Of a stretch of 64,000 bases of DNA, positions 13,376 through 63,829 are shown one piece after another. Below the pieces are notes generated by a model that saw only the letters and a list, made by a program, of their open reading frames with translations, did not search any database and was not told where the DNA came from. The number at the start of each line of letters is the position of its first letter. Position 1 is the first letter of the stretch. The stretch is from a phage: the sequence record PZ402300.1, one strand, 5' to 3'. The translations under genes and the position numbers were made by a program.

Positions 13376-16300
13376 ATGTCAACATTTGACCGTCTGGCAG
13401 GTTTCGCAGACAGCATCACTACTGCTAAGCAAGTCGATGTCTCTACTGCAACCTCTCGGAAACAAGCTGAACAAGGGCAAAGCCCTTTCCAACTAACCCC
13501 ACAGAACGCTTACCAATTACAGGCAGGTCGTGCTGGTGACTTAGGTGCTGGTGCATTTGACCCAGGTTCTATTCAGGCAGATTTTACTAATGCCTCCCCC
13601 CTTGAAATCGTAAACAAATATGGCAATGAGCAGGGAATGGACATTCTCAATGCTCGTGTCAATGCAGCTAATGCTGTTCGTCGTGATTTAACTAAGAGTC
13701 GTACATATGGTGAAGCACTTGGTGATACCCTTTTTGGTGTTGGTCTTGGTGTTGCTAATACCCTTGGGGGCATTGCTGCTCTTGGCACAGGTTTGGTCAA
13801 TGATAATGCCGGGGCATCCATTGCTTCCGGTCTTGACTGGTTAAACAAAGGTGTACACAACCTACAGTCTGATGCACTGAATGCTCGTCGTAATGTAGTA
13901 CAGAACCAGAACGTAATATCTGCACAGGAAAATGAGAAACTCTATAAGCAGGATGTTGCTAAAGGGGAAAGTGAACTCGTTGCTTCTCTGTCTCGCATTG
14001 GTCGTGATGCTTACGATTCCGTTGCTAACACTTTATCCAATGGTATGGCTGCTACAGATGGTCTGGCTGAGGGTGTTGGTTCTCTGTTTACAGGTGGTCC
14101 ATTAATTCGTGGTGTATCTGCACTTGGTAAAGTAATGGTAGGTGGGGATAAAGCTGTTAAGGGTATTACCTTAGCTGCTGAATTAGGTTCACGTCCTGCA
14201 CGTACTGCATTAGCTACTGGTCGTGTTGCTGCACCTGCTATGGCAATTGGTGGTATGGAAGCTGGTGGTGCATACCAACAGACTGCTAATGAAATTATGG
14301 AAATGCCATTCAGTGAACTGGCTGCTAAATCTTCTGTATACCAACAGCATATTAAAGACGGTCTGCCTCCTGAAGAAGCTCGTCGTCAGACTGCATCTGA
14401 AACGGGTATTACTGCTGCTGGTTTAACTGCTCCGATTGCTGCTCTTACTGGCCCATTAGTATCCAAGTTTGAACTTAACCCACTTAAGGTAGGTTCACTG
14501 GCTGGTGCTGGTTCTAATATGCTACGTGAGACTGTAGAAGAAGGTATTCAGTCTGGTACAAGTCAGTTTGCACAGAACAAGGCAATTCAGGGTAATGTAG
14601 ATGCTAATCGTGACCTGCTTAAAGGTGTTGGTGAACAAACCGGGCTTGGTGCATTGTATGGCTTTGGCTCTGCTGGAGTTGCTCAAGCTCCTGGTGCAAC
14701 TGTTAAGGCTGCTGGTGCTGCCGTTGGTCCTGCTGTACGTACTACCCTGGCTGGTGCTTCTCTGGCTGGTAAGGCACTAGCAAAAGTAGCTTCTCCTATT
14801 ACTAACATCCTGGTTCAACGTGGAGAAGAAGTAGCTAAACGTAACGAACAAGCATCCCCTGTATCAGACGCTACAGTTAATGCTGCTGCACAAGAAGCTA
14901 CTGCTCAGGCAGAACAAGCGCAAGCAACTGTACAGGAAGCAGTAGATGCAATGGACATTTCTCCAGAAGAGAAAGCTGCTGCTACCCAATATGCTGCTGA
15001 CTTAACTCAGGTAATGAAGTTTGACCCAGTAGAACTGGAACAAGCTAGTCCTGCAATCCGTGAAGCTGTTTCTGGTTCCACTAACCGTGTTGAAGCTATT
15101 CAGAAGATGGCTGACTTGGTTAATACTGCTGAAGACCCTAATGTTCAAATGGAAGCTGCAATCCAGATGTATGACAACATCATGTCTATGGATAGCTTCA
15201 TTAACCGTGACCCGGGTGCATTAGCTAATCTGGAACAAGGTTCTCCTGCTGCTAATATTGTTGACCAGTTCTCTGGTCTGATGGCTAACGTTCAGAATAC
15301 ACCAAAGGTACTTCGTGCATTCCGTGCTATTCATTCTATGATTCAGGAACAGGCTGAAGCAGGTAAACTGAAAGCTACTGAGGAAGCCAATCAAGCTCAG
15401 GCAAACAATATTGCTATGGCTGCTGATATGTCTCCAGAAGTACTGGATGCAGATTCAGTGAACATGGTTCTGAAACATGCAAGTGAAGGTAAGATTACAC
15501 TGGGGAATCGTCAGCGTGCTGCCCTGCAATCTGCTGCTGCTCTATTGCAAGGAGCACGAGAATTTGACGCTAAAGCAGAAGAACTAGGCTTACGTCCTCA
15601 AGACATTGTTAGTAAACAGATTAAAACCGACGAATCTCGTTCTAATGAAGGCCAGTACTCTGCGTTGCAACATGCTAAACGCATTCGTTCTGCGTACAAC
15701 TCTGGTAACTTCGATTTGGCTTCCGCTTATCTCGACGACTTTATGAAGTTCGCCCAGCACATGCAGAATAAGGTCGGAGCGTTGAATGAGCATCTGATTT
15801 CTGGGAATGCGGATAAAAATAAGTCTGTTCATTATCAGGCTCTTACTCCCTCGCGTGAATGGGTACGTAGTCGTACTGGCCTCGGTGTCAATCCGTATGA
15901 TACCAAGTCGGTTAAGTTTGCCCAGCAAGTAGGACTGGAGGCCAAGACCGTAGCTGATATTGCTAACGCACTTGCTACGGCTTACCCGGAGCTTAATGTT
16001 TCTCATGTGAAAGTTACCCCATTGGATTCACGTCTGGACAAACCTGCTGCCCAGGTAGTTAAAGAGTTCCGTCAGGGCAATCTTGATGCTGCTCAATCCC
16101 AACAGACCAATGAACCAGTGAATCAGGTTGATGAAACTCCTGTTACGAAACAGGAACCAGTTACCCCTACTGTACAGACTAAACCCTCTGTTAGTGAAGC
16201 TGTTAAAACAGAATCCACTATTAAAGAGTCTAAACCACAGTCTGTAAAAGAACCTGAGAACCAGTCTGAAAAACAGGATGTTACCCTCACTAATGAGGAT

Positions 16301-19300
16301 ACCACTCAGGAAGTGGCTGAAACTAAAACAGAAATGGAAACAGTGTTCCCTGTCTATAACAATGAAAAGACACCGAACCAGTTCATTAAAGCATTTTCTC
16401 TACCAGAAGAACCTAAGTCTCGTACCATTGGTTCTGAGTCTCCTCTGACCGATGTTAAGAAAGCACTGTCTTCTGCTGCTCGTTTCGAAGCATTCACTCA
16501 AAAAGAAAATAACGCCCTCACAAGTGATGTGATTAAGCGTTATCAGGACTTATTTGATTTTGGTGAAATTCTGAAGACTACCCTGTCTGACCGTCTGGCT
16601 AAGTTCCTTGCTAATAAGAATGTTGGTAAACGTTTTGCAGAAGGTACTGAGGCTAACCGTTGGGTAGGTGGTAAGTTACTTAACATCGTAGAAAAAGATG
16701 GTGACACCTTTAAGTTCAATGACCAGTTGTTAGAGACTGCTGTACTTGCTGGTCTGCAATGGCGATTAACTGCTACACAGAATGCTGCTGTTAAAGACAT
16801 GAAAGACGTAGCTGCTATTACTGGTGTAGAAGCATCTCTGCTACCAGAAGGCATTTTGGCTGATTTCGAAAATGCTCAGACATTGGTTGAAGCTACTAAC
16901 TCACTGGCTCAAAAGATTGAATCTTATTGGGGACTTAACCGTAATGCTGATGCACCACTTGGTTATACCAAGGGTATCCCAGTGGCAATGGCTACAGAGA
17001 TTCTATCTTCTTTTATTGAGATGGGTGTAGTTAAAGAGTCTATGCTGGATGTGTCTGAGATTGACCCAGAATCTAAAAAGACTGTTGGTCTGTATACCAT
17101 TGATAAGTTAGAGGATAATGATGCCATTAATAATTTCCCTACTGCTATTGAGGAAGCTGTCCTTGTAGAACCAGCAGAGAAACTGTACCTAGGTGATGAT
17201 ATTCCTTCCGTGGCTCCTACTCAGTTACGTAACCCTGCTGTCCGTAATACTCCAGAACAGAAAGCTGCTCTTAAAGCAGAACAGGCTACTGAGTTCTTTG
17301 TACATACTCCAATGGTTCAGTTCTATGAGGCGTTAGGTAAAGACCGTATCCTCGAACTGATGGGTGCAGGTACTCTGGATAAAGATTTACTTAATAAGAA
17401 CCATGCTAAATCTTTGGAAGGCAAGAATCGTTCAGTAGAGGATTCTTATAACCAATTGTTCTCTGTTATTGAACAGGTAAGAGCACAGAGTGAAGACATT
17501 TCCACTGTGCCTATTCACTATGCATACAATATGACTCGTGTTGGTCGTATGCAGATGTTAGGTAAATATACCCCCCAATCAGCTAAGCTGGTTCGTGAGG
17601 CTATTTTACCTACCAAAGCTACTCTGGATTTATCGAACCAGAACAACGAAGATTTCTCTGGCTTCCAGCTTGGACTGGCTCAGGCATTAGGTATCAAAGT
17701 TCATAAAATGACTCGTGAAACTATGTCAGAGGAACTTACCAAAGCTCTGGAAGGTAAGCTGAAACCTGCTGTAGATATGATGGTTGAGTTTGATAAGTCT
17801 GGATACTTACCTACTGATGCAGTGGATATCTTAAGAACATCTCTGGGTAATGATAAATCCTTTGTGGCTCTCATGGCTCTTATGGAATATGCCCGTTACC
17901 TTAACAGTGATGACCGTGCCAACTTTAATACTCCTTTGTACGTTGAAGCCGATGGGGTAACCAACGGACCAATCAACGCAATGGTATTAATGACTGGTGG
18001 TAAGTTCACTCCAAACTGGATTAAGAATACTGCCAAAGGTGGTTTGTTCTTTGGTAAAGCTGGTAAGACTATGAATGAGCATCATACGCAGGATGACAGT
18101 GTTGACCTGTATGAAGCATCTACAAATAGTCTGCAATTCTATCTGAATGAATTACGTAATACTTACAGTAAAAATATTCCAGTTATAAACCAGATGGACC
18201 ATCTCCAGAAGTTAATGAACTTGTTCATTAAAGACTTCAATCTTAAGGAAGACGGTACTCTGGACCTGAAGCGTGGTATCGCTAAAAACCCACTTACCAT
18301 TACCATCTATGGTTCTGGTGCTCGTGGTATTGCAGGCAAGATGGTAAGTGCAATTACTGATACCATCTATGAACGCTTAAGCGACGTTCTGAAAGCCCGT
18401 GCTGTTGACCCTAACATTCCCCCAGCTATGGCGATGTTTGGTAAGGAGGCTGCGTCTGAGGCTGATGCTCAGGCTATGCTGGATACCTTCCTTACTTCTA
18501 TGAAAGCGTTGACTGGGAATATTCCAGCTAAGCGTAAAGGTAAGTTATTCATTAAGGAAGTAGACGGTGTTCTGACTGGTAAGTTAGACCCCCAGGAGTT
18601 TACTGTATCTGGTAATGCTCTTAAGAACTTACAAGAGAATATGCTGCATTTCTTTGTTGAGCCAATGAGGCAAAGTATCCGGTTCACTGTTGGTGAGGGG
18701 TTGATGCACTCTACTGAGAATTTGCAGAAAGCTACCCAGATTCAATCTCTGGTATTGCAGGATATGTTCCAACAAGCAGTACAGGCTAAGCTGGCAGAAA
18801 AAGAAAAAGACCCAACATGGAAGAAGGGTGATTTCTTAACGCAGAAAGAATTGAATGAAATCCAGAATAGCTTAGCTCCACTGGCTCCAATGATTAAGAC
18901 TGGTTCCCAGACTTTCTACATTGCTGGAAGTGAGAATACTGACGTTGCTAACCAAGTATTGGCTACCAACTTAGATGACCGTATGCGTGTGCCAATGAGT
19001 ATCTATGCTCCTTCGCAGGCAGGTGTTGCAGGTATTCCCTTTATGACCATCGGTACTGGTGATGGCATGATGATGCAGACCCTTTCTACTATGAAAGGTG
19101 CTCCGAAGAATACCCTGAAAATCTTTGATGGTATGAACATTGGTATCAATGACATTACTGATGCAAGTCGTAAAGCTAATGAGGCTGTATATACTTCCTG
19201 GCAGGGTAATCCTATTAAGAATGTATATGAGTCTTTCTCTAAGTTTGTTAAGAATGTTGATTTAAATAAGCTGTCCGATTCAGCAATAGATGCTATTGCA

Positions 19301-22300
19301 AAGTCTGCTTTAGACTTTGAGCAACGTGCTCATATTGCCAGGGTAGATGGTGATAGAGATTATAAAATTTCTATGATTAGAGATTCTGGTATTGCATTAA
19401 TTGAGCGTAACCTACGTAACATTGCTTTGGGTGTAGATATTCGTCACAAGGTAATGGACCAGGTACAGGTCACTGTTGACCAGATGGCTGCTGTTGGTGC
19501 TCCTTATGTGAACAACGGTAAAATCTCTCTGGAAGGTCTGACTATAGACCAGCAAGTAGCCAAGCTGAACGAACTGTTTGATGCTGAATTAAACAAGCGT
19601 CGTGATGCAGTACGTGCTGCTAAAGCGGAACCAACGAAGGCAGAACCAGTGAAGGAAGTGCCGGTGAAAGTTGTACCAGCTATGGAGAAGGTAGGTCGTG
19701 TACTGAAGTCTGGTGTACGCCTGTTGTCTAATGCTGCTATTACTAAGCTGGCTAAAGAGATGTCTCCTGAACAGCAAGCAGTATTGAAAGAAATACAGAA
19801 ATCTCTTGCTGCTAAAGACTACAAGGTTGTTTACGGTACACCTTCTCAACTGGATGCCTACGCTATTGAGAAGAACATTACTCGCCCAGCACCAGAAGAT
19901 ATTGAAGCTGCTGAAGCAGGTAATGCATATGGCTGGACTAACTTTGAAGATAAGACCATCTACTTAGTTACCCCTTCCTTAGAGACTTTGGTTCATGAAT
20001 TAGTACATGCTTCTACTTTTGAATCTGTACTGGCTCACTACGAAGGCACCCCTAATGAAGCTGTCCAGAACATTGAAGACCTGATGAACCAGTTCCGTGC
20101 TTTGGATGTTAAGGATGAATCCCCGGTAGTACGTGAAGCATATGCCGATGCACTGAATACCATTAATGGTCATTTGTCTAATGGCTTTATTGAACCAGCA
20201 ATGGCTAAAGCTGCTGCACTGAATGAGTACATGGCTTGGGGTTTAACCAACCGTGAACTTATTAGTAAGCAGAAGAAAACCACTGCACTTAAGACTATGG
20301 TTCAGGCTGTATATGAAGCAATCAAACGTTTGGTATTCGGACGTAAGAAAGCTCCAGCTAATGCAGATGATATGTTCTCGGGCTTATTGTTTAACTCTGC
20401 TGTAGTTATGCGTGGGCAGGCTCCTACTGCTGCTGTAGCCAAAGACACTACCCTGTTCCATAACAAAGCATATGGTGACAATACTCGTCTGGAAGAGTTA
20501 GGGAAAACCTTCGATAAGTTGATTACTGACTACATTGGTTCAGAACCAGTACAGCAAGTAATTCGTAAAGGTAAGTTTTCCGATGCAGTAGTGAATGCAA
20601 CTAAAGTAACTCGTGATGTTCAGGCTCATGGCTTCACCATGAATATGCAGGAACAGCGTCTCTTTACTAACATTGTTGCTGCTCTCGCTACCGAGGCTGC
20701 TATTAACCCTGCTGCTCTGGCTCGTGCACAGGAATACTACACGCATGTTACTAAGAATCTGACTGTTGAAGCATTTATGTCTGACCCTGATAGTACTAAC
20801 CCTGCTGACCGTTACTATGCACAGCAGAAGTTCGATACCATCATGGGTGCTAACAACATTGAGTTTGATGCACAAGGTCGTTCTTCCTTACTGCCTACCT
20901 TTGTTGGTCTGGCAATGGTAAGCGAAGAGGTACGTAAGGTACTGGCTTATATTCCTGTTATGAAAGCAGATAAGAAATCAGGCAATACCGTTGATGCAAT
21001 GCTGACTAATATCGGTACTGCTGCAATGGCTAGTTTGAATGCTCGTGTAGCAGGCGATACTAAAGCCACTAACGTACAAGAAGGTATGGATGCACTGGCT
21101 CAGACAATCATGCAGACCAGCCTTAATGCAGAGTCCTTCTATGATTCCGTTGCTACTCCTACCGGTAATGCTATTGACCGTGCTAACCAGTATCTGGTGG
21201 ATTCTATTGATGTACTGTCTACCCGTGCTTTAGAAGGTGCTCGTGAAGTTGCAGCTAATACCAAGAACCCATTGGTTAAAGGTGCTGCTCATGCTGCACA
21301 ACTGGTAGCTGCTATTGCTACAGAGAAGAATGGTTCAATCGTAGCTGAGGGTGTTATGGCTGCAATGAACCAAGGTAAAGTATGGCAACCTTTCCATGAC
21401 CTGGTTAATGACATAATCGGTCGTACTAAGAGCAATGCTTCTGTATACGATTTGATTAAAGCAGTACGTGCACAGGTACAAGCTGACCGTCAACAGTTCC
21501 GTGAACACCTACCTACCACTATCGCATCCAAATTCAGCCGTAAGCTGACTAATGATGAGTGGAAAGCAATGCATACCGGTATGGGTAAAACTGACTTAGC
21601 TGTTCTGCGTGACACTATGTCTCTGGCTGAAATCCGTGACCTACTGACTGACCAAAAGATTGTTGACCGTGAGGTTAATAAACTGGAAGCAGATTTGCAG
21701 AAACAAGCAGGACGTAACTGGCCTCTGATTAATCGTAAATCTAAGCAACTGGCTCAGTACATGATTAATGGTACAGTCGGTAATAACCTGCTGCGTAATG
21801 CTACTGCAATTTCACGTTTGCTGGGTGAACGTAAGACTACACGTTCTGTTGTAGATGTAGCTCAGCTGGATAAACTGATTACTTTATATGCACTGGAAGC
21901 AATGAATAAGACTGACCGTGAGATGTTATCTTCACTGGCTCAGACAGAAATTGAAGGTATGGACTTTGCTACATCTTACCTGGTTGGCCAGCGTAAAGAT
22001 GAAATGGCTAAAGTCAAGTCTGATAGTCGTGCAACTCTGAACCAGTACAAAGGGTATATTCCTGGTGAGACTAAACAGGGTGTTAACCTGATTGTTGCTG
22101 AAGATAGTCAGTTTGTTGATTTGATTGAGAAATCCTATGTACGTCTGGGGACTTATCAAGGTAGCTCTGCTAATCGTGGTCCAGCACGTAGTTACTACTT
22201 TGCACCAGTACAGGCACAGGCTCCATTCTCACAGGGTATCCTACAGAACGTTCGCAATACTGCTGGTGGTGTAGACCTCGGCACAGGCTTTACGATGGGA

Positions 22301-39015: not shown

Positions 39016-39077
39016 AGCTTATTTCCTCTTCAAAGATAGCCTCACTTTATTATAAGTGAGGCTATTTGAACAGGCTA

Positions 39078-46891: not shown

Positions 46892-46928
46892 AGATAGCCC
46901 AACTATGTTGGGCTATTTAGGCAGCTAC

Positions 46929-52796: not shown

Positions 52797-53839
52797 CTTA
52801 GCAATGTCAGACAGAATCTGATTGTACTGACGACGCAGGTCATTACCGTAGTTAGGATGGCATCTAAAACCATTAGTTAAACGAGTCGTTAGCTCGCCCT
52901 TACCTTCCATGATTAACATGGAAGCCATACGTAGCATCTGCTTCTTTACGAGCAAGCATTGCCTCCTCAAGTGTGTCATACGTACCCAGACCGATCTGTT
53001 TACGATTGACTGTGATGTGTGCCTGGAATCTACCAGAAGGTAATATTCTTACACCATTCACTTTGCTTGATGTATTACGTGATAAACCCATATTCATCTG
53101 GTTCTGTCTACTGGTTACATTTCTCAGATTAGACCAACGGTTGTCGTTTCTAATGTGATTGATGTGATCCACCTGGTTAGGTGTTTCCCCTGTTTCCATT
53201 ATCCAGATTATTCGATGCAGTAAGTACTCTTTACGACCCAGACTAACAGATAAATAGCCTTCTTTGTGAGGATACCCCACAATTGTTCCGGCTAATCCAC
53301 TAGCAGAGTCGTAACGATGAGTTACTAGCCCACTTTCTCTGTCATACCGTAAAACCTTCTTCAAAGATTCTTGGGTAATAGTATCCAAGTCTTTTATCAG
53401 GTTCTTACAGGTAGGACATAGGTGGCCTATTGGACTCTTTTTAGCATCATAGAAGTTGCAAACAAACTCACTAGAGCATTGCTTACAACTACAGATAGCT
53501 GTGTACTTACCAGTTTTACGTAATATTTGGGAGTTATCTAACATATGGATTCCTTAGTAATTTTGCATACAATTTCAGATTGTATCCTAACCAAGGAAGT
53601 AAGTCTCCAGTTTTCACTGGAGTATCGGACTATATCATCACCCACTAATCAGTGGGGCAAGGCGCTTGGGTGGTCACTTGACTCACCTACTCTACTCACA
53701 TACGAAATGTTTTCGATAGTCTCTGAACCTTCCCTCATGGAGGGCTTGGCTGCTGATTGGCATATCCATAGGACTTAGCTTTCCAGCAATTCACCTTGTT
53801 TTCGACACGGATTACTCCGTGAAGGATCATTTATGTTTA
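52797..53839 (-). mobile_element. Group I intron 2 (approximate boundaries) carrying an HNH-AP2 homing endonuclease gene
   Basis: Minus-strand core elements AAUUGCUGGAAAGC (P-like), AAUCAGCAGCC (Q-like), GGUUCAGAGACUAUCG (R-like, 53714-53729) and GAUGAUAUAGUCCGAUAC (S-like, 53622-53639); begins with UAA directly after the exon-2 …VHD codon; P1 not identified, 3' end could be 52899 instead. Confidence 0.55.
52900..53544 (-). CDS. HNH homing endonuclease with C-terminal AP2-type DNA-binding domain (intron 2-encoded)
   Basis: 214 aa; HNH motif VDHINHIRNDNRWSNLRNV; AP2-like region VNGVRILPSGRFQAHITVNRKQIGLGTYDTLEEA. Confidence 0.7.
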   Translation of the reverse strand: MLDNSQILRKTGKYTAICSCKQCSSEFVCNFYDAKKSPIGHLCPTCKNLIKDLDTITQESLKKVLRYDRESGLVTHRYDSASGLAGTIVGYPHKEGYLSVSLGRKEYLLHRIIWIMETGETPNQVDHINHIRNDNRWSNLRNVTSRQNQMNMGLSRNTSSKVNGVRILPSGRFQAHITVNRKQIGLGTYDTLEEAMLARKEADATYGFHVNHGR

Positions 53840-54446
53840 ATCATGTACAGTCATTACAGGGAATGGCTTCTTAGGTAAAGTATTGAGCATAGTCAGGATT
53901 ACATCTGTATCAACCAATGCAATGGTTTCTGAGTCCAGATAATCAAAGATACGGGTAGACAGAAAGCCTGATTTCTCATAGCTAGCCCACAGTGTATTAA
54001 CCGTTTCATGACTAGCACCAGGGACAACTATGTATTCACCAGTTCCTTCACAGAGGGACTTAATATAGTTCACCTGGTTCACGTTGAAGTTACAACGACG
54101 CAGCATCTCACGTACCACCATCCCATCAATAGAGTGAGTGATGTTAGCAGAGAGCATACGGGTCTTCTCTTCAGTACCCTGAACCATACGAGTGATGTCG
54201 AATGGCTTACCTAAGAAGTTAACAGTCTGTACTTCAGGAACCATGACCTTAATGACAGCATGGAAGTTGTCAGGAAGTACCCATACGTAACGGTTAGCAT
54301 CAGGATTACCACATTGCAGTAAGAACTTGTTAAGTGCCCAAGGACCACTAGCAACAGTTTCCATTACATTCTCAAAAGTCTTGAGACGAATACCTTCACC
54401 GAATACTTCTTTAGGCTTGGCTTCTGAGCCGTAGAATGCAGTCATA
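53840..54446 (-). CDS. RNAP II large subunit, exon 2 (motif B second half through motif C region)
   Basis: Track ORF 53837..54445 (MTAFYGSEAK…VMTVHD); TAFYGS aligns to T7 RNAP TLAYGS (Y639); TLWASYEKSG aligns to T7 TVVWAHEKYG. Confidence 0.7.
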
Positions 54447-55253
54447 CATTATGTTCAAGGGAGGTCGTTAGTCTCCCCCAGCAGCTTTACCTGCATCTCA
54501 CTGTTACCAGTGAGTTCGGACTATATCATCTAGACTGATAGTCTAGCCGGGCGCTTCGACCCACTTGGGCCTACTCTACTAAGTTCAGCTTTCGCTGCTT
54601 TTCGATAGTCTCTGCACCTTTTGGTTATTCAAAACAGCATCACACATATCAATAAAGTCATTGGTTGAGAGGTCACCCTTTGCTCGGTTTACACACCAAG
54701 CTAACCATTGAACATTACCAATACTGTATCCTTTACTTGGTTCTATCTGATCTAGTGATAGACACAAAGGATGCCCCGATTCAATTACTAAGGTTGCTCC
54801 AGTTAAAGCACATTTAAATTCCTGTGATTTAAGGATTTCAAATAAATACTCTACTGTACAATCTGGCATAGGCTTACCAAACTTTTTACACCGACTTCTT
54901 GCATCCTTTAGTCTATGGGAGACTGCGGAATACCATTTACGGTGTTCTTTTGGTATTGCTTTACGAACTCCAGTTCCATTGTAACCTGGGTTCTTTTTAC
55001 GCCATTCACGAGCTACAGCAGCCTTACAGGGTCTGCAACGATTCTCGTAATTAGTTTTGAATCCTGTGAGTGATTTTTTAGTCTCTGGGAATACTTCGAT
55101 AGGAAGTAATTTTTTACATCGACTACATGTTTTGAATTCTGACATAGAATGCTCCTTATTGAACTTTCTACGCTACCAACTTGGCTCATGATTGTCCACT
55201 AGGGATGTTCCATGAGTTCACCCGGTTTTAAGGCCGCCATGACTTAAAGGTTA
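54447..55253 (-). mobile_element. Group I intron 1 (807 nt) carrying an HNH/His-Me-finger-like endonuclease ORF
   Basis: 5' exon ends GGCCGU paired with intron GCGGCC (P1, U-G at splice site); intron AGUCAUG pairs with exon-2 start UAUGACU (P10); terminal G at 54447; R-like GGUGCAGAGACUAUCG (54602-54617) and S-like GAUGAUAUAGUCCGAAC (54514-54530). Confidence 0.75.
54585..55145 (-). CDS. Intron 1-encoded putative homing endonuclease (zinc-ribbon N-terminus, degenerate HNH/His-Me finger core)
   Basis: 186 aa; CSRCKK…CRPCK Cys pairs; LSLDQIEPSKGYSIGNVQWLAWCVNRAKGD resembles an HNH-type nuclease core. Confidence 0.5.
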   Translation of the reverse strand: MSEFKTCSRCKKLLPIEVFPETKKSLTGFKTNYENRCRPCKAAVAREWRKKNPGYNGTGVRKAIPKEHRKWYSAVSHRLKDARSRCKKFGKPMPDCTVEYLFEILKSQEFKCALTGATLVIESGHPLCLSLDQIEPSKGYSIGNVQWLAWCVNRAKGDLSTNDFIDMCDAVLNNQKVQRLSKSSES

Positions 55254-56701: not shown

Positions 56702-56754
56702 CGCTTATTCTCCTAAATGTGATTAATAACCGAAAGCTGCGGAGCAGCTATTAC

Positions 56755-58571: not shown

Positions 58572-58805
58572 TTAGTAAGTATATTCAAGAGATGTTTTAC
58601 CATCTGTATAACATACAGATACTTTACTATCTATGAAGTACATCTTGCTATTAATACGTACTTCATCAATAGAGAAATTGCTAAAAGGTTTAGAGTACAC
58701 CTTACGAATAATAGTTCTGTTATTACCCTTTAGTTTAATTCGGGCATAACCTTTTCGGTCAACGAATATCTCATTACCTACAATTACATCACTGAGGTTG
58801 TTCAC
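58572..58805 (-). CDS. Hypothetical small protein
   Basis: 77 aa ORF. Confidence 0.35.
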   Translation of the reverse strand: MNNLSDVIVGNEIFVDRKGYARIKLKGNNRTIIRKVYSKPFSNFSIDEVRINSKMYFIDSKVSVCYTDGKTSLEYTY

Positions 58806-59106
58806 TTAGTGCCTCCATCAGTATTTTACGAATAACATTCACATCAGATTCAGTACCAATTAAACCAACAGGTTTACCTGTACTATCTGTTACAAAGGAT
58901 GCAATCCTTTCCATCTCTGCTGTAATTAACTTGTCACCACTAATAAGACGATTACGAAGGTAAGCCTCATAAGCTACCTCTACATCTTCTACTGTGGTTC
59001 TTTCATTACGAGAGAATGGATTGCTTAGTGGGAATGGTAGGTGGATACGTATATTCCGGTCAGCTATTTTAGCTGAATGTGGAAGTATACAAACAATTTC
59101 ATTCAA
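58789..59106 (-). CDS. Hypothetical small protein
   Basis: 105 aa ORF. Confidence 0.4.
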   Translation of the reverse strand: MNEIVCILPHSAKIADRNIRIHLPFPLSNPFSRNERTTVEDVEVAYEAYLRNRLISGDKLITAEMERIASFVTDSTGKPVGLIGTESDVNVIRKILMEALSEQPQ

Positions 59107-59146
59107 GGTTATTTCTCCTATTTAAATATATATCTAACTATTCAGG

Positions 59147-59179
59147 AATAAAAAATAGAAGTCCTCCTAATGGAGGACT
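59147..59179 (-). terminator. Rho-independent terminator
   Basis: Minus strand AGUCCUCC-AUUA-GGAGGACU followed by U-rich run. Confidence 0.55.
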
Positions 59180-59297
59180 CCTCATTATTTGATACATGGA
59201 TGATTGAAGGTAACAATCTTACGTACTGGTTCAGATGTCTGTTTCTTAGCAGTCAGACGTTCTTTTATCTTCTGTACGTCTTCTTTGGTTCCCATGA

Positions 59298-59480
59298 TTA
59301 AGGATTTACGCATGATTTAGTATTCCACATAAAGTTAAAAGGTTTATTGTTACGTACAATTCTTACAACCATTTGATAGCCATTGAGTTGCACAACACCA
59401 TAGTGTCGTTTCTGTACACCAGTGTGATACCTACGAAAGATACATTCTTCAATGGCATCTTCTATGTTAGTGAATATCAC
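59298..59480 (-). CDS. Hypothetical small protein
   Basis: 60 aa ORF. Confidence 0.3.
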   Translation of the reverse strand: MIFTNIEDAIEECIFRRYHTGVQKRHYGVVQLNGYQMVVRIVRNNKPFNFMWNTKSCVNP

Positions 59481-59681
59481 AGGTTCTCCGGTAATACTGA
59501 TAACTGAGCACAGGTAAATAACGTTTACACATCCCCACCTGGTTCATCTCTACCACGAGCATCACTCCCTATGACTACAAACATACCAATAATTACACCT
59601 ACAGCTAATAACCATGGAAATGCAGCTACCAGCAGTATCATTAATAAAGTACACAGAATTTCTACCAGTAGCTTCATAGCA

Positions 59682-59867
59682 TTATCCTTTGTGAAGTTTA
59701 CGTATCTGTTTACGGGTAGGTTTAGTTACAAAGAAGTGGTCATAGCAGCGACCATTTGCATCTTCTACAGATACCTGCCAACGAGCATTAAGTGACATCT
59801 TGCTGCCCCAAGGTTGTAACATAACAATCATCTTTTGTGGGTTATAACGGTTACATACTGTACGCAT
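59682..59867 (-). CDS. Hypothetical small protein
   Basis: 61 aa ORF. Confidence 0.3.
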   Translation of the reverse strand: MRTVCNRYNPQKMIVMLQPWGSKMSLNARWQVSVEDANGRCYDHFFVTKPTRKQIRKLHKG

Positions 59868-59970
59868 AATGGTTACTCCTTCATCTAATATAAATCTATA
59901 TCTATCTGATTACTGTTTCAGTACCCTTCGTCTAAAGATACTCAAAAAGTAGAAATAGCCTTTCGCATAG

Positions 59971-60001
59971 TTAAAAATAAAAGACTCCCCGAAGGGAGTC
60001 T
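59971..60001 (-). terminator. Rho-independent terminator (UUCG tetraloop)
   Basis: Minus strand AGACUCCC-UUCG-GGGAGUCU followed by UUUAUUUUUAA. Confidence 0.6.
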
Positions 60002-60010
60002 ATTGATTGA

Positions 60011-60391
60011 TTAGAAAGTCAGTTTACGAGCATATTTATTCTCGTCTGCTGGGATGTCAGCAGCCTCTGCTTTCACACGACGAAGTTGAACTTGCAGGTT
60101 AATGACTCCTTCTTCACCTGGTTCCAGGTTCTGAGCATATGCAATTAACTGTTCCAGCAAGTCGTTCTGTGCACAACGCATAGCACGGAAGTCAGCATTG
60201 CTGCTATTAGTAGGCAGCGGTTCCTGAGTATCCAGTGGAATACCAGTAGGCAGTGAGATGAATTTCTCATCATCAGAGCCTTCATTAGCTACATAACCAA
60301 TGTTCAGCCAGAACTGAGCTTTTGGTTTATCAGCTTTAGCAGTGGTAGCAGCAGCGTTAGATTGACCGAAAGTGAATTTTTGAATAGCCAT
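60011..60391 (-). CDS. Hypothetical early protein
   Basis: Track ORF 60011..60484; start reset to ATG 60391 (MAIQKF) preceded by GGAGAG RBS. Confidence 0.45.
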
Positions 60392-60520
60392 TTTGTACTC
60401 TCCAGATTTATGTGATTTACGGGTGAACTCGTCGGTGAGAACACCCAAACAAAGGGATAAAAGTTCAATGATTAGTGGATGCATTTACATCATCCATAAG
60501 ACGCGGAGCGTCGTTGCCTT

Positions 60521-60736
60521 TCAGAATGGACAACCTGTTTCAGCTTCCAGTTTATCCATGAAGTAGCCTGAGTTATGCAGATAAGCATGTAATTCAACAT
60601 GCCCTTGCATACGATACTCTTCGAGTAAGGATAGAAACTCTCCATACTCTTTATCTGTAGACCTTCTTGCATTGCTGAGGTTTACAGGTTTATTGCTAAA
60701 GCAATTCTCAATCATACGGATATTTTCTACGTTCAT
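60521..60736 (-). CDS. Hypothetical small protein
   Basis: 71 aa ORF. Confidence 0.4.
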   Translation of the reverse strand: MNVENIRMIENCFSNKPVNLSNARRSTDKEYGEFLSLLEEYRMQGHVELHAYLHNSGYFMDKLEAETGCPF

Positions 60737-60746
60737 GGATGTCTCC

Positions 60747-61001
60747 TTAATTGGTTGAAATGTATCCGTAAGCTGTGGAACAGCTTAGCTCTTCCTTATC
60801 TGGCTCTCCTTCACAGGATTCCCACTGCCATACATAACCAGTTAGTGGAAGGGTTTCTCCCTCCACAAAGTAGGGTTCACCATCTTTAATTTTTAAATCG
60901 GAATCTCTTGTAAGAGTGATTTCTCCATCCATCAATTCTCCTACGATAATTGTTCCAACAGGGACATCAGCAGAGCCTTCGATACAACGGAATTTGGTCA
61001 T
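60747..61001 (-). CDS. Hypothetical small acidic protein
   Basis: 84 aa ORF. Confidence 0.4.
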   Translation of the reverse strand: MTKFRCIEGSADVPVGTIIVGELMDGEITLTRDSDLKIKDGEPYFVEGETLPLTGYVWQWESCEGEPDKEELSCSTAYGYISTN

Positions 61002-61017
61002 GATTTTCTATCCTTAA

Positions 61018-61035
61018 AGTAGATAGTTATCTACT
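61018..61035. promoter_or_regulatory. 8-2-8 inverted repeat AGTAGATA-GT-TATCTACT (candidate operator) upstream of gene 60747..61001
   Basis: Perfect 8-bp arms; adjacent TTATCTATCTA repeat; 17-34 nt upstream of start codon. Confidence 0.4.
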
Positions 61036-61054
61036 TTTGATTATCTATCTAATG

Positions 61055-61083
61055 TTCAAAACAGGAGACTCCGAAGAGCCTCC
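61055..61083 (-). terminator. Hairpin terminator (UUCG loop, weak U tract)
   Basis: Minus strand GGAGGCUC-UUCG-GAGUCUCC followed by UGUUUUG. Confidence 0.45.
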
Positions 61084-61091
61084 TAGGTGAC

Positions 61092-61415
61092 TTAGTCTTT
61101 AGTCAGGATGTCAATTACTTTGGAATATTCTGCGTTATAGATACGAGCGTTCTCTGAATCCTTGCAGAATTCCTCAATACTTTTCTTACGCAGAGTCTCA
61201 GTCATAGCTGTTTCCTCTGCCAGTTTATTAACAAAGGTATGCATTTCTAATTTAGTACGAATGGCTTGTTTCTCTGCCATCGTACTTACATATGAATTAA
61301 GCATACCTACTGCTTTAGTTGCTGTACTGAATGTATCTGCAACAGTAGTAGCAGCTGAGTTAACAGTACCAAGTAAAGTTCCTGCGGTCATACGTACAGT
61401 AGCTTGAGTAGTCAT
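61092..61415 (-). CDS. Hypothetical small protein (Thr/Ala-rich N-terminus)
   Basis: Track ORF 61092..61604; start reset to ATG 61415 (MTTQATV) with GGAG RBS; upstream part of track ORF spans the G11 tract and is likely non-coding. Confidence 0.4.
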   Translation of the reverse strand: MTTQATVRMTAGTLLGTVNSAATTVADTFSTATKAVGMLNSYVSTMAEKQAIRTKLEMHTFVNKLAEETAMTETLRKKSIEEFCKDSENARIYNAEYSKVIDILTKD

Positions 61416-61497
61416 GATGATAGCTCCAATAGTTGATGATAGGACGACATGTCCATAACATGCGGAGCATGTGTAACGTGTAAGGTGGGGTAGGGTA

Positions 61498-61565
61498 GTG
61501 GCTACACCGTCAACATACCGGGGGGGGGGGCTAGCTGAGTGTAAGGGTGTAGCCCCAGCCACACC
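61498..61565. repeat. Imperfect inverted repeat enclosing an 11-G homopolymer (61520-61530) in a G-rich intergenic region
   Basis: GCTACACC (61501-61508) pairs with GGTGTAGC (61546-61553); upstream GGTGGGGTAGGGTAGTGG. Confidence 0.45.
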
Positions 61566-61597
61566 ACTGTAGTCATACCTACATAATGAATATTTAG

Positions 61598-61625
61598 TAT
61601 GCAAAAAATTATGAGGTAACTATCT
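61598..61625. promoter_or_regulatory. Repeat copy 1: TATGCAAAAAATTATGAGGTAACTATCT
   Basis: Near-duplicate of motif at 61665; contains CTATCT element shared with the 61018 inverted repeat. Confidence 0.4.
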
Positions 61626-61664
61626 GCATAAGGTTGTAGCCATACATAACTATGCTACTTTTCA

Positions 61665-61688
61665 TATGCAAAAATATGATAGCTATCT
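61665..61688. promoter_or_regulatory. Repeat copy 2: TATGCAAAAATATGATAGCTATCT
   Basis: Direct repeat of 61598 motif ~67 bp away. Confidence 0.4.
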
Positions 61689-62014
61689 TACTTATAAGCA
61701 GTTAAATAGGAGGGAGCATATACCAGGTGAGGGGTTCGTAGTTCACTCGTAATACCAAAAGTAAGAGTGTACTTATCTGTATTCACATGCCATGGTGAGT
61801 ACATGGAAGAAGGCCATGGTAGTTCCTTTCCTGGTTCCTGTAAGAATACTCTTACTTCTATTCCCAGTAACAAGGCTAACCCTTTTACTTCATGAAATGT
61901 TTGTTCATCCGGTACTAGTATAATAGTAGTAAGTCTATCTGGTATAAGGTTTTGTAAGGTTGTATGGATGGTGGGATTAGGCCCACCAGCATAACCTATC
62001 TTAGTAAGTTTCAT
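61688..62014 (-). CDS. Paralog-family small early protein A
   Basis: 108 aa; motif TIILVPDEQTFHEVKGLALLLG shared with five neighbouring ORFs. Confidence 0.5.
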   Translation of the reverse strand: MKLTKIGYAGGPNPTIHTTLQNLIPDRLTTIILVPDEQTFHEVKGLALLLGIEVRVFLQEPGKELPWPSSMYSPWHVNTDKYTLTFGITSELRTPHLVYAPSYLTAYK

Positions 62015-62348
62015 GGGATATAATCCTTACTCTCTTAAAATCTTTATTAGGTCTGCTATCTATAGTAAGTCCAACAAACCCTTCTTCTATCCTTGGTTCA
62101 AAGAACAAGAATGCAGATTCACCAGCAGGTATCTTTATGGATTCTCCTGGGTTGAGAATGGTTAACTTAGCTGGACTATTGAGAAGAAGGATGGAACCAC
62201 GGGTACTATCTGCTAACTCTCCTGATAGCATAACCATATGACAGTCTTGCGGTAGTAACCATTCAATAGCTTTAGTAATGTTCTCGGAGTAAACAGAGAC
62301 TTCATCCTTATACTGATGGAGATACAGTACTCTATTCATAAGGCACAC
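62001..62348 (-). CDS. Paralog-family small early protein B (divergent)
   Basis: 115 aa; MVMLSGELADSTRGSILLLN…LTILNPGE matches family pattern. Confidence 0.45.
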   Translation of the reverse strand: MCLMNRVLYLHQYKDEVSVYSENITKAIEWLLPQDCHMVMLSGELADSTRGSILLLNSPAKLTILNPGESIKIPAGESAFLFFEPRIEEGFVGLTIDSRPNKDFKRVRIISHETY

Positions 62349-62656
62349 TCGTCGCTAGATAAATATGAGGTAGAAGGATAGAGGGTAATAAGTCTACCAG
62401 TTAGAGTAGTAACTACCATAGGTTCACAAGAGGAGTAGATGTATACAACTACATTCTCTGGAGCTTCGATGGAAGTATCTATTTTAATAAAAGTAATAGG
62501 TACACCCAACATGAGGCAGGTTCCGATGAACTCATCCGCTTTTTCACATTGTTCATAGTACATTGTCATAGGCGTATTTATTCTCATCCAATGAGATTTA
62601 CCTACCCCCAGATTAAGGGGACTGGTACTACGATAACTCAAACCATAGAAGTGCAT
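62336..62656 (-). CDS. Paralog-family small early protein C (divergent)
   Basis: 106 aa; EQCEKADEFIGTCLMLG…IEAPE matches family pattern. Confidence 0.4.
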   Translation of the reverse strand: MHFYGLSYRSTSPLNLGVGKSHWMRINTPMTMYYEQCEKADEFIGTCLMLGVPITFIKIDTSIEAPENVVVYIYSSCEPMVVTTLTGRLITLYPSTSYLSSDECAL

Positions 62657-62659
62657 AGC

Positions 62660-62977
62660 TTACTTCCTTATGTAGAAGTAGCAGTATTCATCATTTACAT
62701 ACCTACTTTCCCATTGGTAGGCATCAGACACCAACATGTATGGAATAGGGTCACCTGCACTGTAGTTGGTATAAACAGAAGGAGGAATAATACATACAAC
62801 TTTACGGTCATTACCTGCTAAGAAGAGCTGACCTCTTACTTCATGGTAGTCCTCCAAGGTAGGAACCAGGATTACTTGCTGGGGATTGCTGTTCATGACT
62901 TCTTCTAAAGTGAAGTCAGTTGTGTACATAGACCCTACTTCTTCAGCATAGCTGGGGATGGTCATTATGAATTTCAT
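62660..62977 (-). CDS. Paralog-family small early protein D
   Basis: 105 aa; QQVILVPTLEDYHEVRGQLFLAGN. Confidence 0.5.
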   Translation of the reverse strand: MKFIMTIPSYAEEVGSMYTTDFTLEEVMNSNPQQVILVPTLEDYHEVRGQLFLAGNDRKVVCIIPPSVYTNYSAGDPIPYMLVSDAYQWESRYVNDEYCYFYIRK

Positions 62978-63338
62978 GATGGATTTTCCTTCCTTTAGGA
63001 ATAGGTCTGAAGTAAATGGAAAGTGTTTTATTAAAGACGTTATGGTCAGCTATCATTTCCCAGCCAGGTACTTTATAGAATCTGACTCCTGGGAATAATG
63101 TTTCGAAGTCTGCATACTCAGTAAGATCATACACAACTGGTTCAGTAAGTATACGTGTATTGATTTGCAGGTTACTTAAGAAAAATGAACCAACTATCTC
63201 GTGGGATTCTTCACAGTCTGGTAGGAAGACTACATGTTTAGATAGGAACTTACTTACCATCTCTGGTTCTCCAAGGTAGTAGGGTTCCTGCTTGCGTAGT
63301 ACACCGGTAATATCAATATCAAAAGCGTAGATGCTCAT
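62943..63338 (-). CDS. Paralog-family small early protein E
   Basis: 131 aa; HVVFLPDCEESHEIVGSFFLSN. Confidence 0.5.
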   Translation of the reverse strand: MSIYAFDIDITGVLRKQEPYYLGEPEMVSKFLSKHVVFLPDCEESHEIVGSFFLSNLQINTRILTEPVVYDLTEYADFETLFPGVRFYKVPGWEMIADHNVFNKTLSIYFRPIPKGRKIHHEIHNDHPQLC

Positions 63339-63352
63339 ATTTGCATACCTCC

Positions 63353-63389
63353 TGAAAAAGAAATGGGGTAGAGCCTCTCGACTCTACCC
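63353..63389 (-). terminator. Rho-independent terminator
   Basis: Minus strand GGGGUAGAG-UCGAGAGGC-UCUACCCC followed by AUUUCUUUUUC. Confidence 0.55.
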
Positions 63390-63538
63390 CTTACCGTTTT
63401 CAATCACGGGTCAGTTCATCACCCTAGATACATGTGTATCGTTAGCCTACTAGGTAGGAAAGGAGCCGGGCAACCCTGACTGTAGAAGTTATTAACTCTT
63501 TACGAGTACCGCCACTGTCTACTAGGCGACATGACTAA

Positions 63539-63829
63539 TCACATCGTCACCGTCATCCGAACACTGTCTTTGCTTCGCCTGACGGAGACACTATGAGGTA
63601 ATTTTGTGAAGAACACAAGAGAGGAAGGGCGTTTTTCTAAAGAGTAACTTTCTCTTGGTTCTAAGATCTTAATGCCCGGACGATTTTCTAAAAGCATCAT
63701 CCCAGCTAATTCATGGTAGGTGTCTTCATCATGTGTAATGATGATATCATCTGAAAGAATACCAGCCTTGGTGTGGTCTAGCTCCTTGTATTCATCTTTA
63801 GAGTCGTGGACTCTCATATAGATTCTCAA
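63539..63829 (-). CDS. Paralog-family small early protein F
   Basis: 96 aa; DDIIITHDEDTYHELAGMMLLENR. Confidence 0.45.
   Translation of the reverse strand: MRIYMRVHDSKDEYKELDHTKAGILSDDIIITHDEDTYHELAGMMLLENRPGIKILEPRESYSLEKRPSSLVFFTKLPHSVSVRRSKDSVRMTVTM

Follow-up and report, generated by a model that had tools for sequence, protein, structure and literature searches.

Candidate cis-elements on either side of the left-end module of an N4-like coliphage, and a one-strand AGATAG cluster around its genome end

The inverted repeat and the two direct repeats with CTATCT/AGATAG motifs that the initial annotation of this phage DNA had picked out may be two separate cis-elements that bracket the left-end module of the genome, a palindrome that would serve restart of transcription by RNAPII and a junction box, present as the two direct repeats, that would serve formation of the genome end, a reading in which our confidence is evenly balanced. 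Both repeats belong to a one-strand AGATAG cluster around the genome end. The functions that we assign below are our reading of position, homology, conservation and statistics, which are what the analysis of the window (the whole 64,000-nt stretch, record PZ402300.1) and of related phages shows.

RESULTS

Left-end layout

The window derives from an N4-like coliphage (Gamaleyavirus) and is in reverse complement; its top matches are Gamaleyaviruses at 85-97% identity, and its gp2 is 68% identical to N4 gp2. The left-end module runs in the order junction box, terminal repeat of ~406 bp with the early promoter P1, gp1, early terminator t1 and palindrome (Table 1). Canonical vRNAP hairpins with a GGA loop stand at 61459-61471, at 60500-60512 and around GCGGAGC at 56739-56745, and both the register and the flanks of P1 match those of N4 P1. 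The t1 hairpin, which has a GC-rich stem followed by TGTTTT when read by eye and is absent from the listing of our terminator scan, is kept in N4 and in all relatives. Behind it, all 14 sequences from Gamaleyavirus and Moovirus have ATTAGATAG, which N4 and phi1_146050 lack, and TAGA is present in 1 to 3 copies across relatives. We found no vRNAP hairpin between t1 and the next two genes, no Rfam match over 59-64 kb at E up to 1, and no Pfam domain, including no DNA-binding domain, in ten small neighbouring proteins.

Table 1. Positions in the window of the features at the left end
Feature	Coordinates	Strand	Basis or detail
Oriented AGATAG array, 11 sense-strand copies	58627..63199	-	Local-shuffle enrichment
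AGATAG, plus-strand start coordinates	58627, 58883, 59902, 61045, 61620, 61683, 61935, 61996, 62056, 62206, 63194	-	Motif listing
Perfect 10-2-10 AT-rich palindrome, AAAGTAGATA-GT-TATCTACTTT (minus strand AAAGTAGATA-AC-TATCTACTTT)	61016..61037	.	Inverted-repeat scan
AACTATC/TA core, candidate N4-type RNAPII (middle) promoter, -7 to +2	61020..61028	-	In right arm; putative start T 61021 (slash precedes it)
ATTAGATAGATAATC block, (TAGA)n, directly after terminator	61039..61053	-	Equals plus-strand TTATCTATCTA at 61041-61051
Intrinsic-type terminator hairpin GGAGGCTC-TTCG-GAGTCTCC + TGTTTT, after gp1 (early terminator t1)	61058..61083	-	Sequence reading
gp1 gene, homologue of N4 gp1	61092..61415	-	66% identity to N4 gp1, E = 7e-51
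Inferred direct terminal repeat, ~406 bp	61157..61562	.	Mapped by homology to IME11 pile-ups
vRNAP hairpin early promoter P1	61454..61471	-	Template (plus) strand CATGC-GGA-GCATG, +1 C at 61454
Terminal inverted repeat GGCTACACC / GGTGTAGCC	61489..61565	.	Start of terminal repeat, around G11/C11 tract 61520-61530
Inferred left physical genome end (5' end of packaged DNA)	61561..61563	-	Homology to IME11, N4, G7C
Junction box copy B, adjoining genome end	61563..61629	-	AGATAGTTACC - CATAAT - T6 - GCATA ... TATGACTACAGTGGTG; holds motif 61598-61625
Junction box copy A, distal	61630..61696	-	AGATAGCTATC - (TATCAT) - T5 - GCATA ... TATGGCTACAACC; holds motif 61665-61688
Sigma-70-like promoter match TTAACT-18-TATCAT	61676..61705	-	9/12, consensus match only

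Genome end and terminal repeat

Homology to phages with known or deposited ends places the left end and, next to it, a direct terminal repeat that probably occupies ~61157-61562. The IME11 termini come from read-start pile-ups, which gave a terminal repeat of 401 bp and read starts GTGGCTGGGG, TGTGGCTGG and TGGCTGG (PMC3896407). The first position of the N4 record, like that of the G7C record, aligns to 61561-61563, where we place the left end, and at least 15 related records begin or finish at window ~61561. Moreover, the Mimir124 record carries an annotated terminal repeat at 1-403, and the 24-32N record finishes ~401 bp past the junction. The putative repeat holds P1 and the 5' four-fifths of gp1. 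The terminal inverted repeat at its start is kept in N4 and, with a shifted arm (TACACCC/GGGTGTA), in G7C, and the homopolymer tract between its arms ranges from C7 to C11 in relatives.

[quoted passage not shown] Unlike them, this phage has two tandem junction boxes and a C11 tract, and its termini are assigned by homology. The intergenic region that the initial annotation put at ~270 bp does measure 272 bp (61416-61687), but it is not ordinary early-region DNA; by homology, it is the concatemer junction, and the direct repeats lie just outside the left physical end.

The direct repeats and the junction box

Every sequence described in the initial annotation is present where it had been placed, including the two near-identical motifs, TATGCAAAAA(A)T..CTATCT, at 61598-61625 and 61665-61688. 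These motifs turned out to be the centres of a more extensive tandem duplication (period 67 bp), whose copies share 70% identity over 40 nt ungapped and, once gaps are allowed, a mean column identity of 74%; the two junction copies of TTTTTGCATA are the only ones in the window. Copy A extends over the stop codon of the last gene at the right end. The 63-bp core of this copy (GATAG…GGCTACA) matches without a difference the single box of ECBP1 and of nithesis, where GGATAG stands in place of the AGATAG of the window. For copy B, we found no source among phage records at more than 82% identity.

The junction box is kept in 20 junctions from Gamaleyavirus, Moovirus, N4 and a Klebsiella phage, with differing upstream genes, and is retained even beside a leftward upstream ORF. 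It is single and abuts the left end in 18 of the 20, being doubled only here and, independently, in Moonfish, and the TAnnnT hexamer beside a T-run recurs in all 20 aligned junctions. Box B finishes at the predicted left end (61562/3) and so has, by homology, the adjacency expected of a terminase end-formation site.

We propose that the direct repeats are a tandem duplicate of a conserved box directly abutting the left cut site, with the order GATAG palindrome/hairpin, TAnnnT, T5-6, GCAT, ATAGCTATG, GGCTACAGTGGTG and cut, and that this box would be the signal region for cutting concatemers into a precise left end. Its AT-rich, promoter-like core of TAnnnT and T-run might help to open the DNA or serve as a weak host-type promoter in both directions, comparable to the promoters that flank the T7 terminal repeat. 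The recognition site may instead lie inside the terminal repeat, because the greatest cross-genus conservation near the cut is that of GGGGCTACACCCTTACAC, which is within the repeat and not in the box.

The palindrome downstream of t1

The inverted repeat, annotated as 8-2-8, is real but longer, a perfect 10-2-10 palindrome that lies 15-36 nt upstream of the minus-strand ATG at 61001. Folded as single-stranded DNA it reaches -6.0 kcal/mol (z = -4.3), and it is the sole AT-rich one among the six such inverted repeats in the window. By itself the palindrome is not statistically exceptional: about half of Markov-simulated 64-kb sequences hold an inverted repeat whose arms reach 10 bp or more. The case for it rests on conservation in relatives. 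Across ~10 Gamaleyaviruses the arms do not vary, and the centre reads AC, AA or TT. The palindrome is absent in G7C, Moo19 and CU10EC, is split by a 24-nt insertion in its centre in K57alpha1.2, and in N4 keeps its right half, with the dyad axis shifted by ~5 nt. This right half, the 17-mer ATAACTATCTACTTTAA, occurs once in each of the two genomes, without a difference and at homologous positions, and its 100% identity to N4 stands against ~67% for the proteins. In relatives, unrelated downstream genes join right after TACTTT (+6). That the elements are conserved non-coding signals is supported.

We read the right half as a candidate RNAPII restart promoter because it is identical in N4 and because it carries the T7-like core AACTATC/TA, which shares ACTAT at -6 to -2 with the promoters of T7, SP6 and K11 (T7-group core CACTATAG). 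The published minimal promoter of N4 RNAPII spans -7 to +2, is AT-rich, starts with T and has two motifs, and the right arm plausibly fits that description. Here the core, unlike the N4 RNAPII middle promoters, is embedded in a palindrome. From the putative start, the leader reads TACTTT, then a Shine-Dalgarno sequence AAGGA (61015-61011) and the ATG.

Five N4 spacers contain, on the sense strand, the motif AACTATCTA that is present in the right arm. We also searched with ARYTATCTW, on which the promoter match rests; it is a motif derived in this analysis and not the published N4 middle-promoter consensus. In N4, 8 of its 9 occurrences are on the sense strand, and 5 lie in post-terminator spacers, 12-21 nt before a Shine-Dalgarno sequence and ATG. 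In the window it shows no enrichment, occurring 10 times (7.8 expected), and the palindrome copy alone is in a spacer; the centre variants AAATATCTA and ATTTATCTA, from two relatives, break the ARY part of the core. That the elements are promoters of one class, as had been suggested, is plausible for the inverted repeat, which has AACTATCTA. Under our reading, AACTATC/TA would let RNAPII, together with gp2 and gp1, begin transcription anew beyond t1 and read into whatever genes follow, and the palindrome might help to open or extrude the AT-rich promoter site.

Two other promoter assignments were rejected. The 17-mer is unique in both genomes even at 3 mismatches, which argues against a multi-copy promoter. 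The N4 vRNAP hairpin promoters, like the palindrome, are short inverted repeats in the leftmost part of the genome and upstream of a gene; their rule is a 5-7 bp stem, a 3-nt GRA template loop (purine at -11, G at -10) and a G:C closing pair, as we found in P1, P2 and P3. The palindrome differs from them: its stem is AT-rich, its AT centre is 2 nt long (or 4 nt if the inner pair opens), and the GRA loop, the G:C closing pair and the G at -8 are all lacking. Neither 61016-61037 nor the boxes offer a register with G at -8 in the stem and, 11 nt from the centre of the loop, C at +1 of the template.

A one-strand AGATAG cluster around the genome end

Motif enrichment had been offered as a check on the shared element, and across the window AGATAG/CTATCT is not enriched (43 found, 42.2 expected); we observed a local excess on one strand instead. 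Within ~3 kb of the end, AGATAG occurs 11 times on the sense strand compared to 2.3 expected, a count that none of 1000 local shuffles reached, and it is the most locally enriched of all hexamers there. The copies span -1.6 kb to +2.9 kb relative to the end, and the strands differ sharply (11 AGATAG to 2 CTATCT). Seven copies are within genes, compared to 1.12 expected from codon shuffles (0 of 2000 reached 7), and these use both frames that avoid an in-frame TAG (five GAT-AGN, two ATA-G). The same cluster is found in five related phages; in N4 it is present on the right-end flank only. The half-site proposed as common to all elements meets with a mixed result, in that its GATA/TATC core recurs above chance nearby but the half-site of the box is not conserved in close relatives.

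Other forms of the motif gave no excess window-wide: TTTTTGCATA with one mismatch was found 6 times (7.1 expected), AGATANNTATCT with two mismatches 43 times (43.7 expected), and ATAGYTAT 10 times (6.8 expected; no global excess). The combination CTTAY-N1-6-AGATAG occurs 9 times in the window (0.6 expected); we do not treat it as a general motif because it is only partly shared by relatives. The copies were also considered as antisense RNAPII cores (W-AGATA-R-Y-T), and this was rejected, since 1 of 11 is a full core and three have the R-Y-T flank by eye, which is not above chance. Look-alikes of IHF sites and DnaA boxes, judged by eye and with one or two mismatches, were set aside.

DISCUSSION

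Alternative explanations

We considered that the boxes might be transcription signals only, namely a terminator for the rightward operon of the right end, alone or together with a weak promoter (late-type) for host RNAP, such that their adjacency to the end would be incidental, and we judge this rather unlikely. Part of the box may be a right-end operon terminator, because several lineages have a hairpin before the T-run; these lineage-specific hairpins fold at -11 to -13.6 kcal/mol with z of about -3 to -4.5 (values for ECBP1, IME11, PGN829, pSb-1, phi1 and N4), and they are weak or absent where the upstream gene runs leftward. Sigma-70 promoters have -35 and -10 hexamers 16-18 bp apart, with A2 and T6 in the -10; sigma-70-like scan matches fall on both strands at junctions (9-10/12; the G7C counterpart TTAACT-18-TATAAT scores 10/12), as would suit the N4 late promoters, which have been described as only weakly sigma-70-like; box B and the N4-type boxes have no -35 element. 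Against a purely transcriptional role, the box hairpins are AT-rich and stand 8-11 nt from the T-run in most Gamaleyaviruses (those of phi1_146050 and N4 come near the intrinsic-terminator pattern of a GC-rich hairpin with a T-run directly behind it), the terminator scan found no intrinsic terminator in the boxes, and RNA across both boxes folds no better than shuffled sequence (z = -0.08). Furthermore, conservation runs past the T-run to the cut (GCAT..CAAAAT..GATAGCTATGTATGGCTACAGTGGTG), which neither a terminator nor a promoter would need. That one dimeric regulator of phage or host origin recognises AGATA-NN-TATCT palindromes, in the inverted repeat as well as in both boxes, as the initial annotation had envisaged in its single regulator, is quite improbable. 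The three sites do share an architecture (AGATA-GT-TATCT at 61021, TGATA-GC-TATCT at 61677 and AGGTA-AC-TATCT at 61614). Moreover, of the six window sites that deviate by no more than one mismatch, four are located in spacers of the early region or the junction, GATANNTATC is found 4 times compared to 1.3 expected, and conserved arms with a free centre are typical of operators. A symmetric operator does not predict the strand-specific enrichment, however, and the seven in-gene copies have no palindromic partner; the closest relatives have GGATAG in the box, the dyad axis has moved in N4 and the K57alpha1.2 palindrome is split, and Pfam is blank for the ten neighbouring proteins. A single regulator is accordingly a poor fit.

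It is very improbable, in our view, that the elements are neutral leftovers, produced by (TAGA)n slippage, illegitimate duplication and the keeping of boundary sequences by recombination between mosaic phages. The variable TAGA copy number, the divergence of box B with no close match in phage records, the chance frequency of inverted repeats with 10-bp arms and the location of both elements at mosaic boundaries, where the genes that precede the box and follow the palindrome differ, would all be expected of such leftovers. These observations have to be set against the retention of the box across four genera, the complete identity of the 17-mer in N4 beside diverged proteins, and the excess of in-gene AGATAG above codon-shuffle expectation, which is replicated in the five relatives.

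Relation to T7, pac and cos

AGATAG (core AGATA-R) might be a one-strand signal, at the level of DNA or RNA, that covers coding and non-coding flanks of the Gamaleyavirus terminal repeat, although we consider this unlikely; if it were, the repeats of the initial annotation would be its densest non-coding copies. A same-strand array that flanks the terminal repeat is also the arrangement of the SRL/SRR-type arrays of T7. In the T7 record, A0 is at 224, phiOL at 405 and phiOR at 39229, and the CCTAAAG array (SRL/SRR) occupies 175-341 with a 13-bp period. T7 concatemer processing needs junction fragments with these promoter and array elements. Both phages encode T7-type RNA polymerases and have oriented short-repeat arrays beside a direct terminal repeat, and as phiOR, phiOL and the leftward A0 flank the terminal repeat of T7, so promoter-like elements flank the repeat here. 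The two arrays are unrelated in sequence, and those of T7 are tight and non-coding, whereas the AGATAG copies are dispersed, at about 1 per 200-450 bp over ~4.6 kb, and mostly in genes. In P1 pac (hexamers) and lambda cosB (R sites), too, a short motif recurs next to the point where terminase cuts precisely. The putative cut here is likewise accompanied by repeated copies of a short motif, but, unlike those of P1 pac and lambda cosB, they are spread over kilobases on both sides of the terminal repeat. By analogy, AGATAG could mark the concatemer junction for packaging, as a dispersed, oriented counterpart of the T7 arrays and the P1 pac hexamers. A second possibility would be an action on transcripts or on the displaced strand of the terminal small-gene cluster, in the early-to-middle switch. 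The oriented array appears to be undescribed, in a surrounding context of known biology.

Significance

N4-like phages serve as a model system for transcription that uses three RNA polymerases. In the N4-like literature that we searched, we found no description of the junction box, the palindrome or the AGATAG array, nor of signals for the precise left end or for restart after the early terminator. The present analysis locates three candidate signals, namely a conserved box at the cut site, a conserved palindrome with promoter-like features and an array of one hexamer on one strand. Among deposited genomes of this group, many are opened at arbitrary points, and the box together with GGGGCTACACC would mark the true end. 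Should the array prove to have a function, it would illustrate how a code for packaging or regulation can be superimposed on protein-coding sequence.

Probable position of the genome end

The 60-63 kb region matched 82 phage records, nearly all of them N4-like coliphages of the genus Gamaleyavirus (85-97% identity), including pSb-1, ST4, IME11 and G7C. Since the minus strand carries all genes from ~24 kb to 63.8 kb, and the virion RNA polymerase gene is on the opposite strand, the window shows the usual N4 map in reverse complement.

The base equivalent to window ~61561 is where at least 15 related records start or stop, and both G7C (TGACAGGGGCTACACCC) and N4 (TGGTGGGGCTACACC) have position 1 of their records aligned with it. 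In IME11, ends were measured by read-start pile-ups, with reads starting at GTGGCTGGGGCTACACCC (minor starts ±1 base) and a second boundary 401 bp from the first (PMC3896407). IME11 is 94% identical to the window across the genome-end stretch. Carrying these boundaries over by alignment, we infer that the left physical end would lie at 61562 (range 61561-61563; minus strand) and the other terminal-repeat boundary at ~61157, within gp1, which predicts a terminal repeat of about 406 bp. The repeat is annotated at 1-403 in Mimir124, and the 24-32N record extends about 401 bp beyond the junction. The terminal repeat opens with a terminal inverted repeat (GGCTACACC/GGTGTAGCC; 61489-61565), which flanks a homopolymer tract that is C11 here and in K57alpha1.2, C9 in N4 and C7 in most relatives.

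The initial annotation had placed two direct repeats in a 270-bp early intergenic region. Given the homologous end at ~61562, this region is instead the concatemer junction, in which the order on the minus strand is the last right-end gene, box A, box B and the left end, followed by the terminal inverted repeat around C11, the P1 hairpin and gp1. The three canonical virion-polymerase hairpin promoters on the template strand obey the published rules (3-nt GRA loop, G:C closing pair, G at -8, C at +1). Each is arranged as stem, GGA loop and stem, then TTAT/TTCG and a minus-strand G start, the layout of N4 P1-P3. An additional hairpin resembling a virion-polymerase promoter (AACGC-TCC-GCGTT) lies 3' of gp1 in G7C (L002, 494-512).

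Coordinates of features in the window
Feature	Position	Strand	Detail
Giant virion RNA polymerase gene	13358-23797	plus	
gp2 ORF	60011-60484		68% identical to N4
gp1 ORF	61092-61415		66% identical to N4
Right-end genes (G7C gp70 to gp71.2)	63829-61688		
Hairpin promoter P1	stem-loop 61459-61471, whole 61454-61471	plus (template)	CATGC-GGA-GCATG
Second hairpin promoter	stem-loop 60500-60512, whole 60495-60512	plus (template)	GACGC-GGA-GCGTC
Third hairpin promoter	around 56739, ~56731-56751	plus (template)	AGCTGC-GGA-GCAGCT
G/C run	61520-61530		C11 homopolymer tract
Box A (distal)	61630-61696	minus	
Box B (next to genome end)	61563-61629	minus	
gp1 terminator	61058-61083		
Palindrome	61016-61037		AAAGTAGATA-GT-TATCTACTTT

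Other elements of the map

Among the six small right-end proteins (61688-63829, minus strand), all without a Pfam match, at least those of ORFs 63539, 62943, 62660 and 61688 look like paralogues with a common ..(V/L)P(D/T)..(E/D)..HE..G.. stretch. ARAGORN called one tRNA-Ile (anticodon aat) and one odd tRNA-like gene (25092-25247, minus strand) in the long non-coding stretch separating middle and late genes. Two homologous non-coding minus-strand elements (54446-54584 and 53600-53760) have in common the blocks GTAGAGTAGG, AAGCGCC and GATGATATAGTCCGA, between which lie hairpins that differ in sequence with pairing kept; these elements may be small RNAs. GC-rich ATAGCC..GGCTAT hairpins followed by CT(T/G)TG occur at 39036-39065 and 46894-46916, and the N4 gp34/35 spacer has exactly the same flank, GCTATCTTTGAAGAGGA, with stems that differ in a compensatory manner.

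A duplicated box outside the left end

Both direct repeats, TATGCAAAAA..CTATCT at 61598 and 61665, are present as initially described, and exact copies of TTTTTGCATA occur in the window at just these two positions. They are the cores of a longer tandem duplication with a period of 67 bp. An alignment of 20 junctions (Gamaleyavirus, Moovirus, N4 and a Klebsiella phage) showed the same box directly outside the left end in every one, singly in 18 and twice in this phage and, independently, in Moonfish. Over its 63-bp core, box A does not differ from the one box that ECBP1 and nithesis have; a comparison of box B with 50,697 phage records yielded nothing above 82% identity. The box starts with a GATAG-containing palindrome or hairpin, a TAnnnT hexamer and a run of 5-6 T, and continues with GCAT (CTTAG in N4), CAAAAT, (G/C)ATAG(C/T)TATG and TATGGCTACAGTGGTG as far as the cut. 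Genes 5' of the box vary among phages, and the box is retained in two metagenomic contigs in which its neighbor is a small opposite-strand ORF. Thus, the constraint is on DNA rather than on protein. In the metagenomic relatives L029 (1713-1832, minus) and L025 (same place), a 39-aa hydrophobic ORF lies on the opposite strand directly left of the box and would need a leftward promoter within it.

Simple scans gave sigma-70-like matches (TTAACT-18-TATCAT in the window, TTAACT-18-TATAAT in G7C, and one more on the opposite strand). Several lineages have a hairpin 5' of the T-run, which elsewhere is weak or missing; its distance from the T-run is 8-11 nt in most Gamaleyaviruses, which explains why a terminator scan found none in the boxes. 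RNA folding of both boxes gave stability no greater than that of shuffled sequence. We tentatively suggest that the boxes act in left-end formation and contain a promoter-like core.

A palindrome after the gp1 terminator

The inverted repeat of the initial annotation is present, but as a perfect 10-2-10 instead of an 8-2-8. As single-stranded DNA it folds at -6.0 kcal/mol (z = -4.3). Inverted repeats whose arms reach 10 bp or more occur in about half of simulated 64-kb sequences, so the palindrome is unremarkable by chance. Of the six in the window, however, it alone is AT-rich; the rest are GC-rich stem-loops, most of them terminator-like.

The gp1 terminator is on one side of the palindrome, and on the other are the next gene's SD and ATG. 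Among Gamaleyaviruses the arms GTAGATA/TATCTAC are constant and the center varies (AC, AA or TT), with the exceptions of one relative with a 24-nt insertion at the center and three without the palindrome. The K57alpha1.2 insertion (L011, ~1040-1080 of the locus) holds a GATGC-GAA-GCATC hairpin with the look of a virion-polymerase promoter. At the equivalent N4 site, ATAACTATCTACTTTAA, 17 nt are identical, present once per genome, and the left arm pairs ~5 nt out of register. What joins on directly after TATCTACTTT in relatives is an unrelated downstream gene with an SD of its own. The TAGA unit after the terminator (61041-61053 and relatives) occurs in 1, 2 or 3 copies, like a small microsatellite, and two or more units (TAGATAGATA) place stop codons in all three frames.

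We searched from the terminator to the next two genes for a virion-polymerase hairpin and found none; thus these genes need read-through or a new promoter. Within the palindrome, AACTATC|TA (61028-61020) has ACTAT at -6 to -2 in common with T7-group promoters. In N4, eight of nine ARYTATCTW matches are on the sense strand and five are in spacers, where TATCT sites mostly follow a terminator, 12-21 nt upstream of an SD and ATG. Two papers describe the promoter of N4 RNAPII, the second phage RNA polymerase, as minimally -7 to +2, AT-rich, with a T start and two motifs. The ARYTATCTW pattern agrees with this description. Based on the N4 spacer sites, the published description and ACTAT, we consider AACTATC|TA a possible RNAPII promoter starting at 61021, and the palindrome could, with similar reserve, serve as an RNAPII restart promoter. 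ARYTATCTW is not enriched across the window, and center variants in two relatives disrupt the upstream part of the candidate promoter core.

An oriented AGATAG array and evidence against a common operator

From the shared half-site, the initial annotation had suggested either binding sites for a single regulator (phage or host) or promoter elements of one class. Indeed, AGATA-NN-TATCT is common to three palindromes and, with at most one mismatch, occurs at six window sites, four of them in early or junction spacers, while GATANNTATC is found in 4 copies against 1.3 expected. Against a common operator, however, the closest relatives have GGATAG as the half-site, the dyad axis is displaced in N4, and ten neighboring proteins contained no DNA-binding domain. 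Moreover, the AGATAG excess is confined to one strand: the sense (minus) strand at 58.5-63.3 kb has 11 AGATAG, compared to 2.3 expected (0 of 1000 local dinucleotide shuffles reach 11), and 2 CTATCT, compared to 2.1. Over the whole window, AGATAG/CTATCT shows no enrichment (43 found, 42 expected).

Eight array sites fall beyond the span of the initial annotation and so constitute an independent test. Seven of the 11 are intragenic, using both reading frames free of an in-frame TAG, whereas codon shuffling of the 18 small genes predicted 1.12 (0 of 2000 shuffles reach 7). In an unbiased comparison of all hexamers, AGATAG had the top local excess, with 11 copies here and 8 elsewhere (P = 2.7e-6; AGATA core, P = 1e-7). 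On coding strands elsewhere, CTATCT is commoner than AGATAG, about 2:1. G7C, ECBP1, pSb-1 and two metagenomic contigs have the same pattern, with 1.9-3.2 AGATAG/kb in relatives around the left end (about -2 to +3 kb), compared to 0-0.26/kb further in; in N4 it is restricted to right-end genes. The composite CTTAY-N1-6-AGATAG (9 found, 0.6 expected) is common to relatives just in part. The nearest verified precedent is the T7 CCTAAAG array (13-bp period), which adjoins the terminal repeat; the T7 promoters A0, phiOL and phiOR flank that repeat.

Implications

The initial observation is confirmed and extended, and its interpretation was right in part. What the analysis shows of the boxes, palindrome and array is their positions, homologies and statistics; their functions are all inferred. 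We are confident of the positional part of our explanation, evenly divided on position and functions combined, and more hesitant about each functional assignment. The N4-like phage literature that we examined contains no description of the junction box, its duplication, the palindrome or the oriented array; the genome-end context in which we place them is known biology for N4-like phages.
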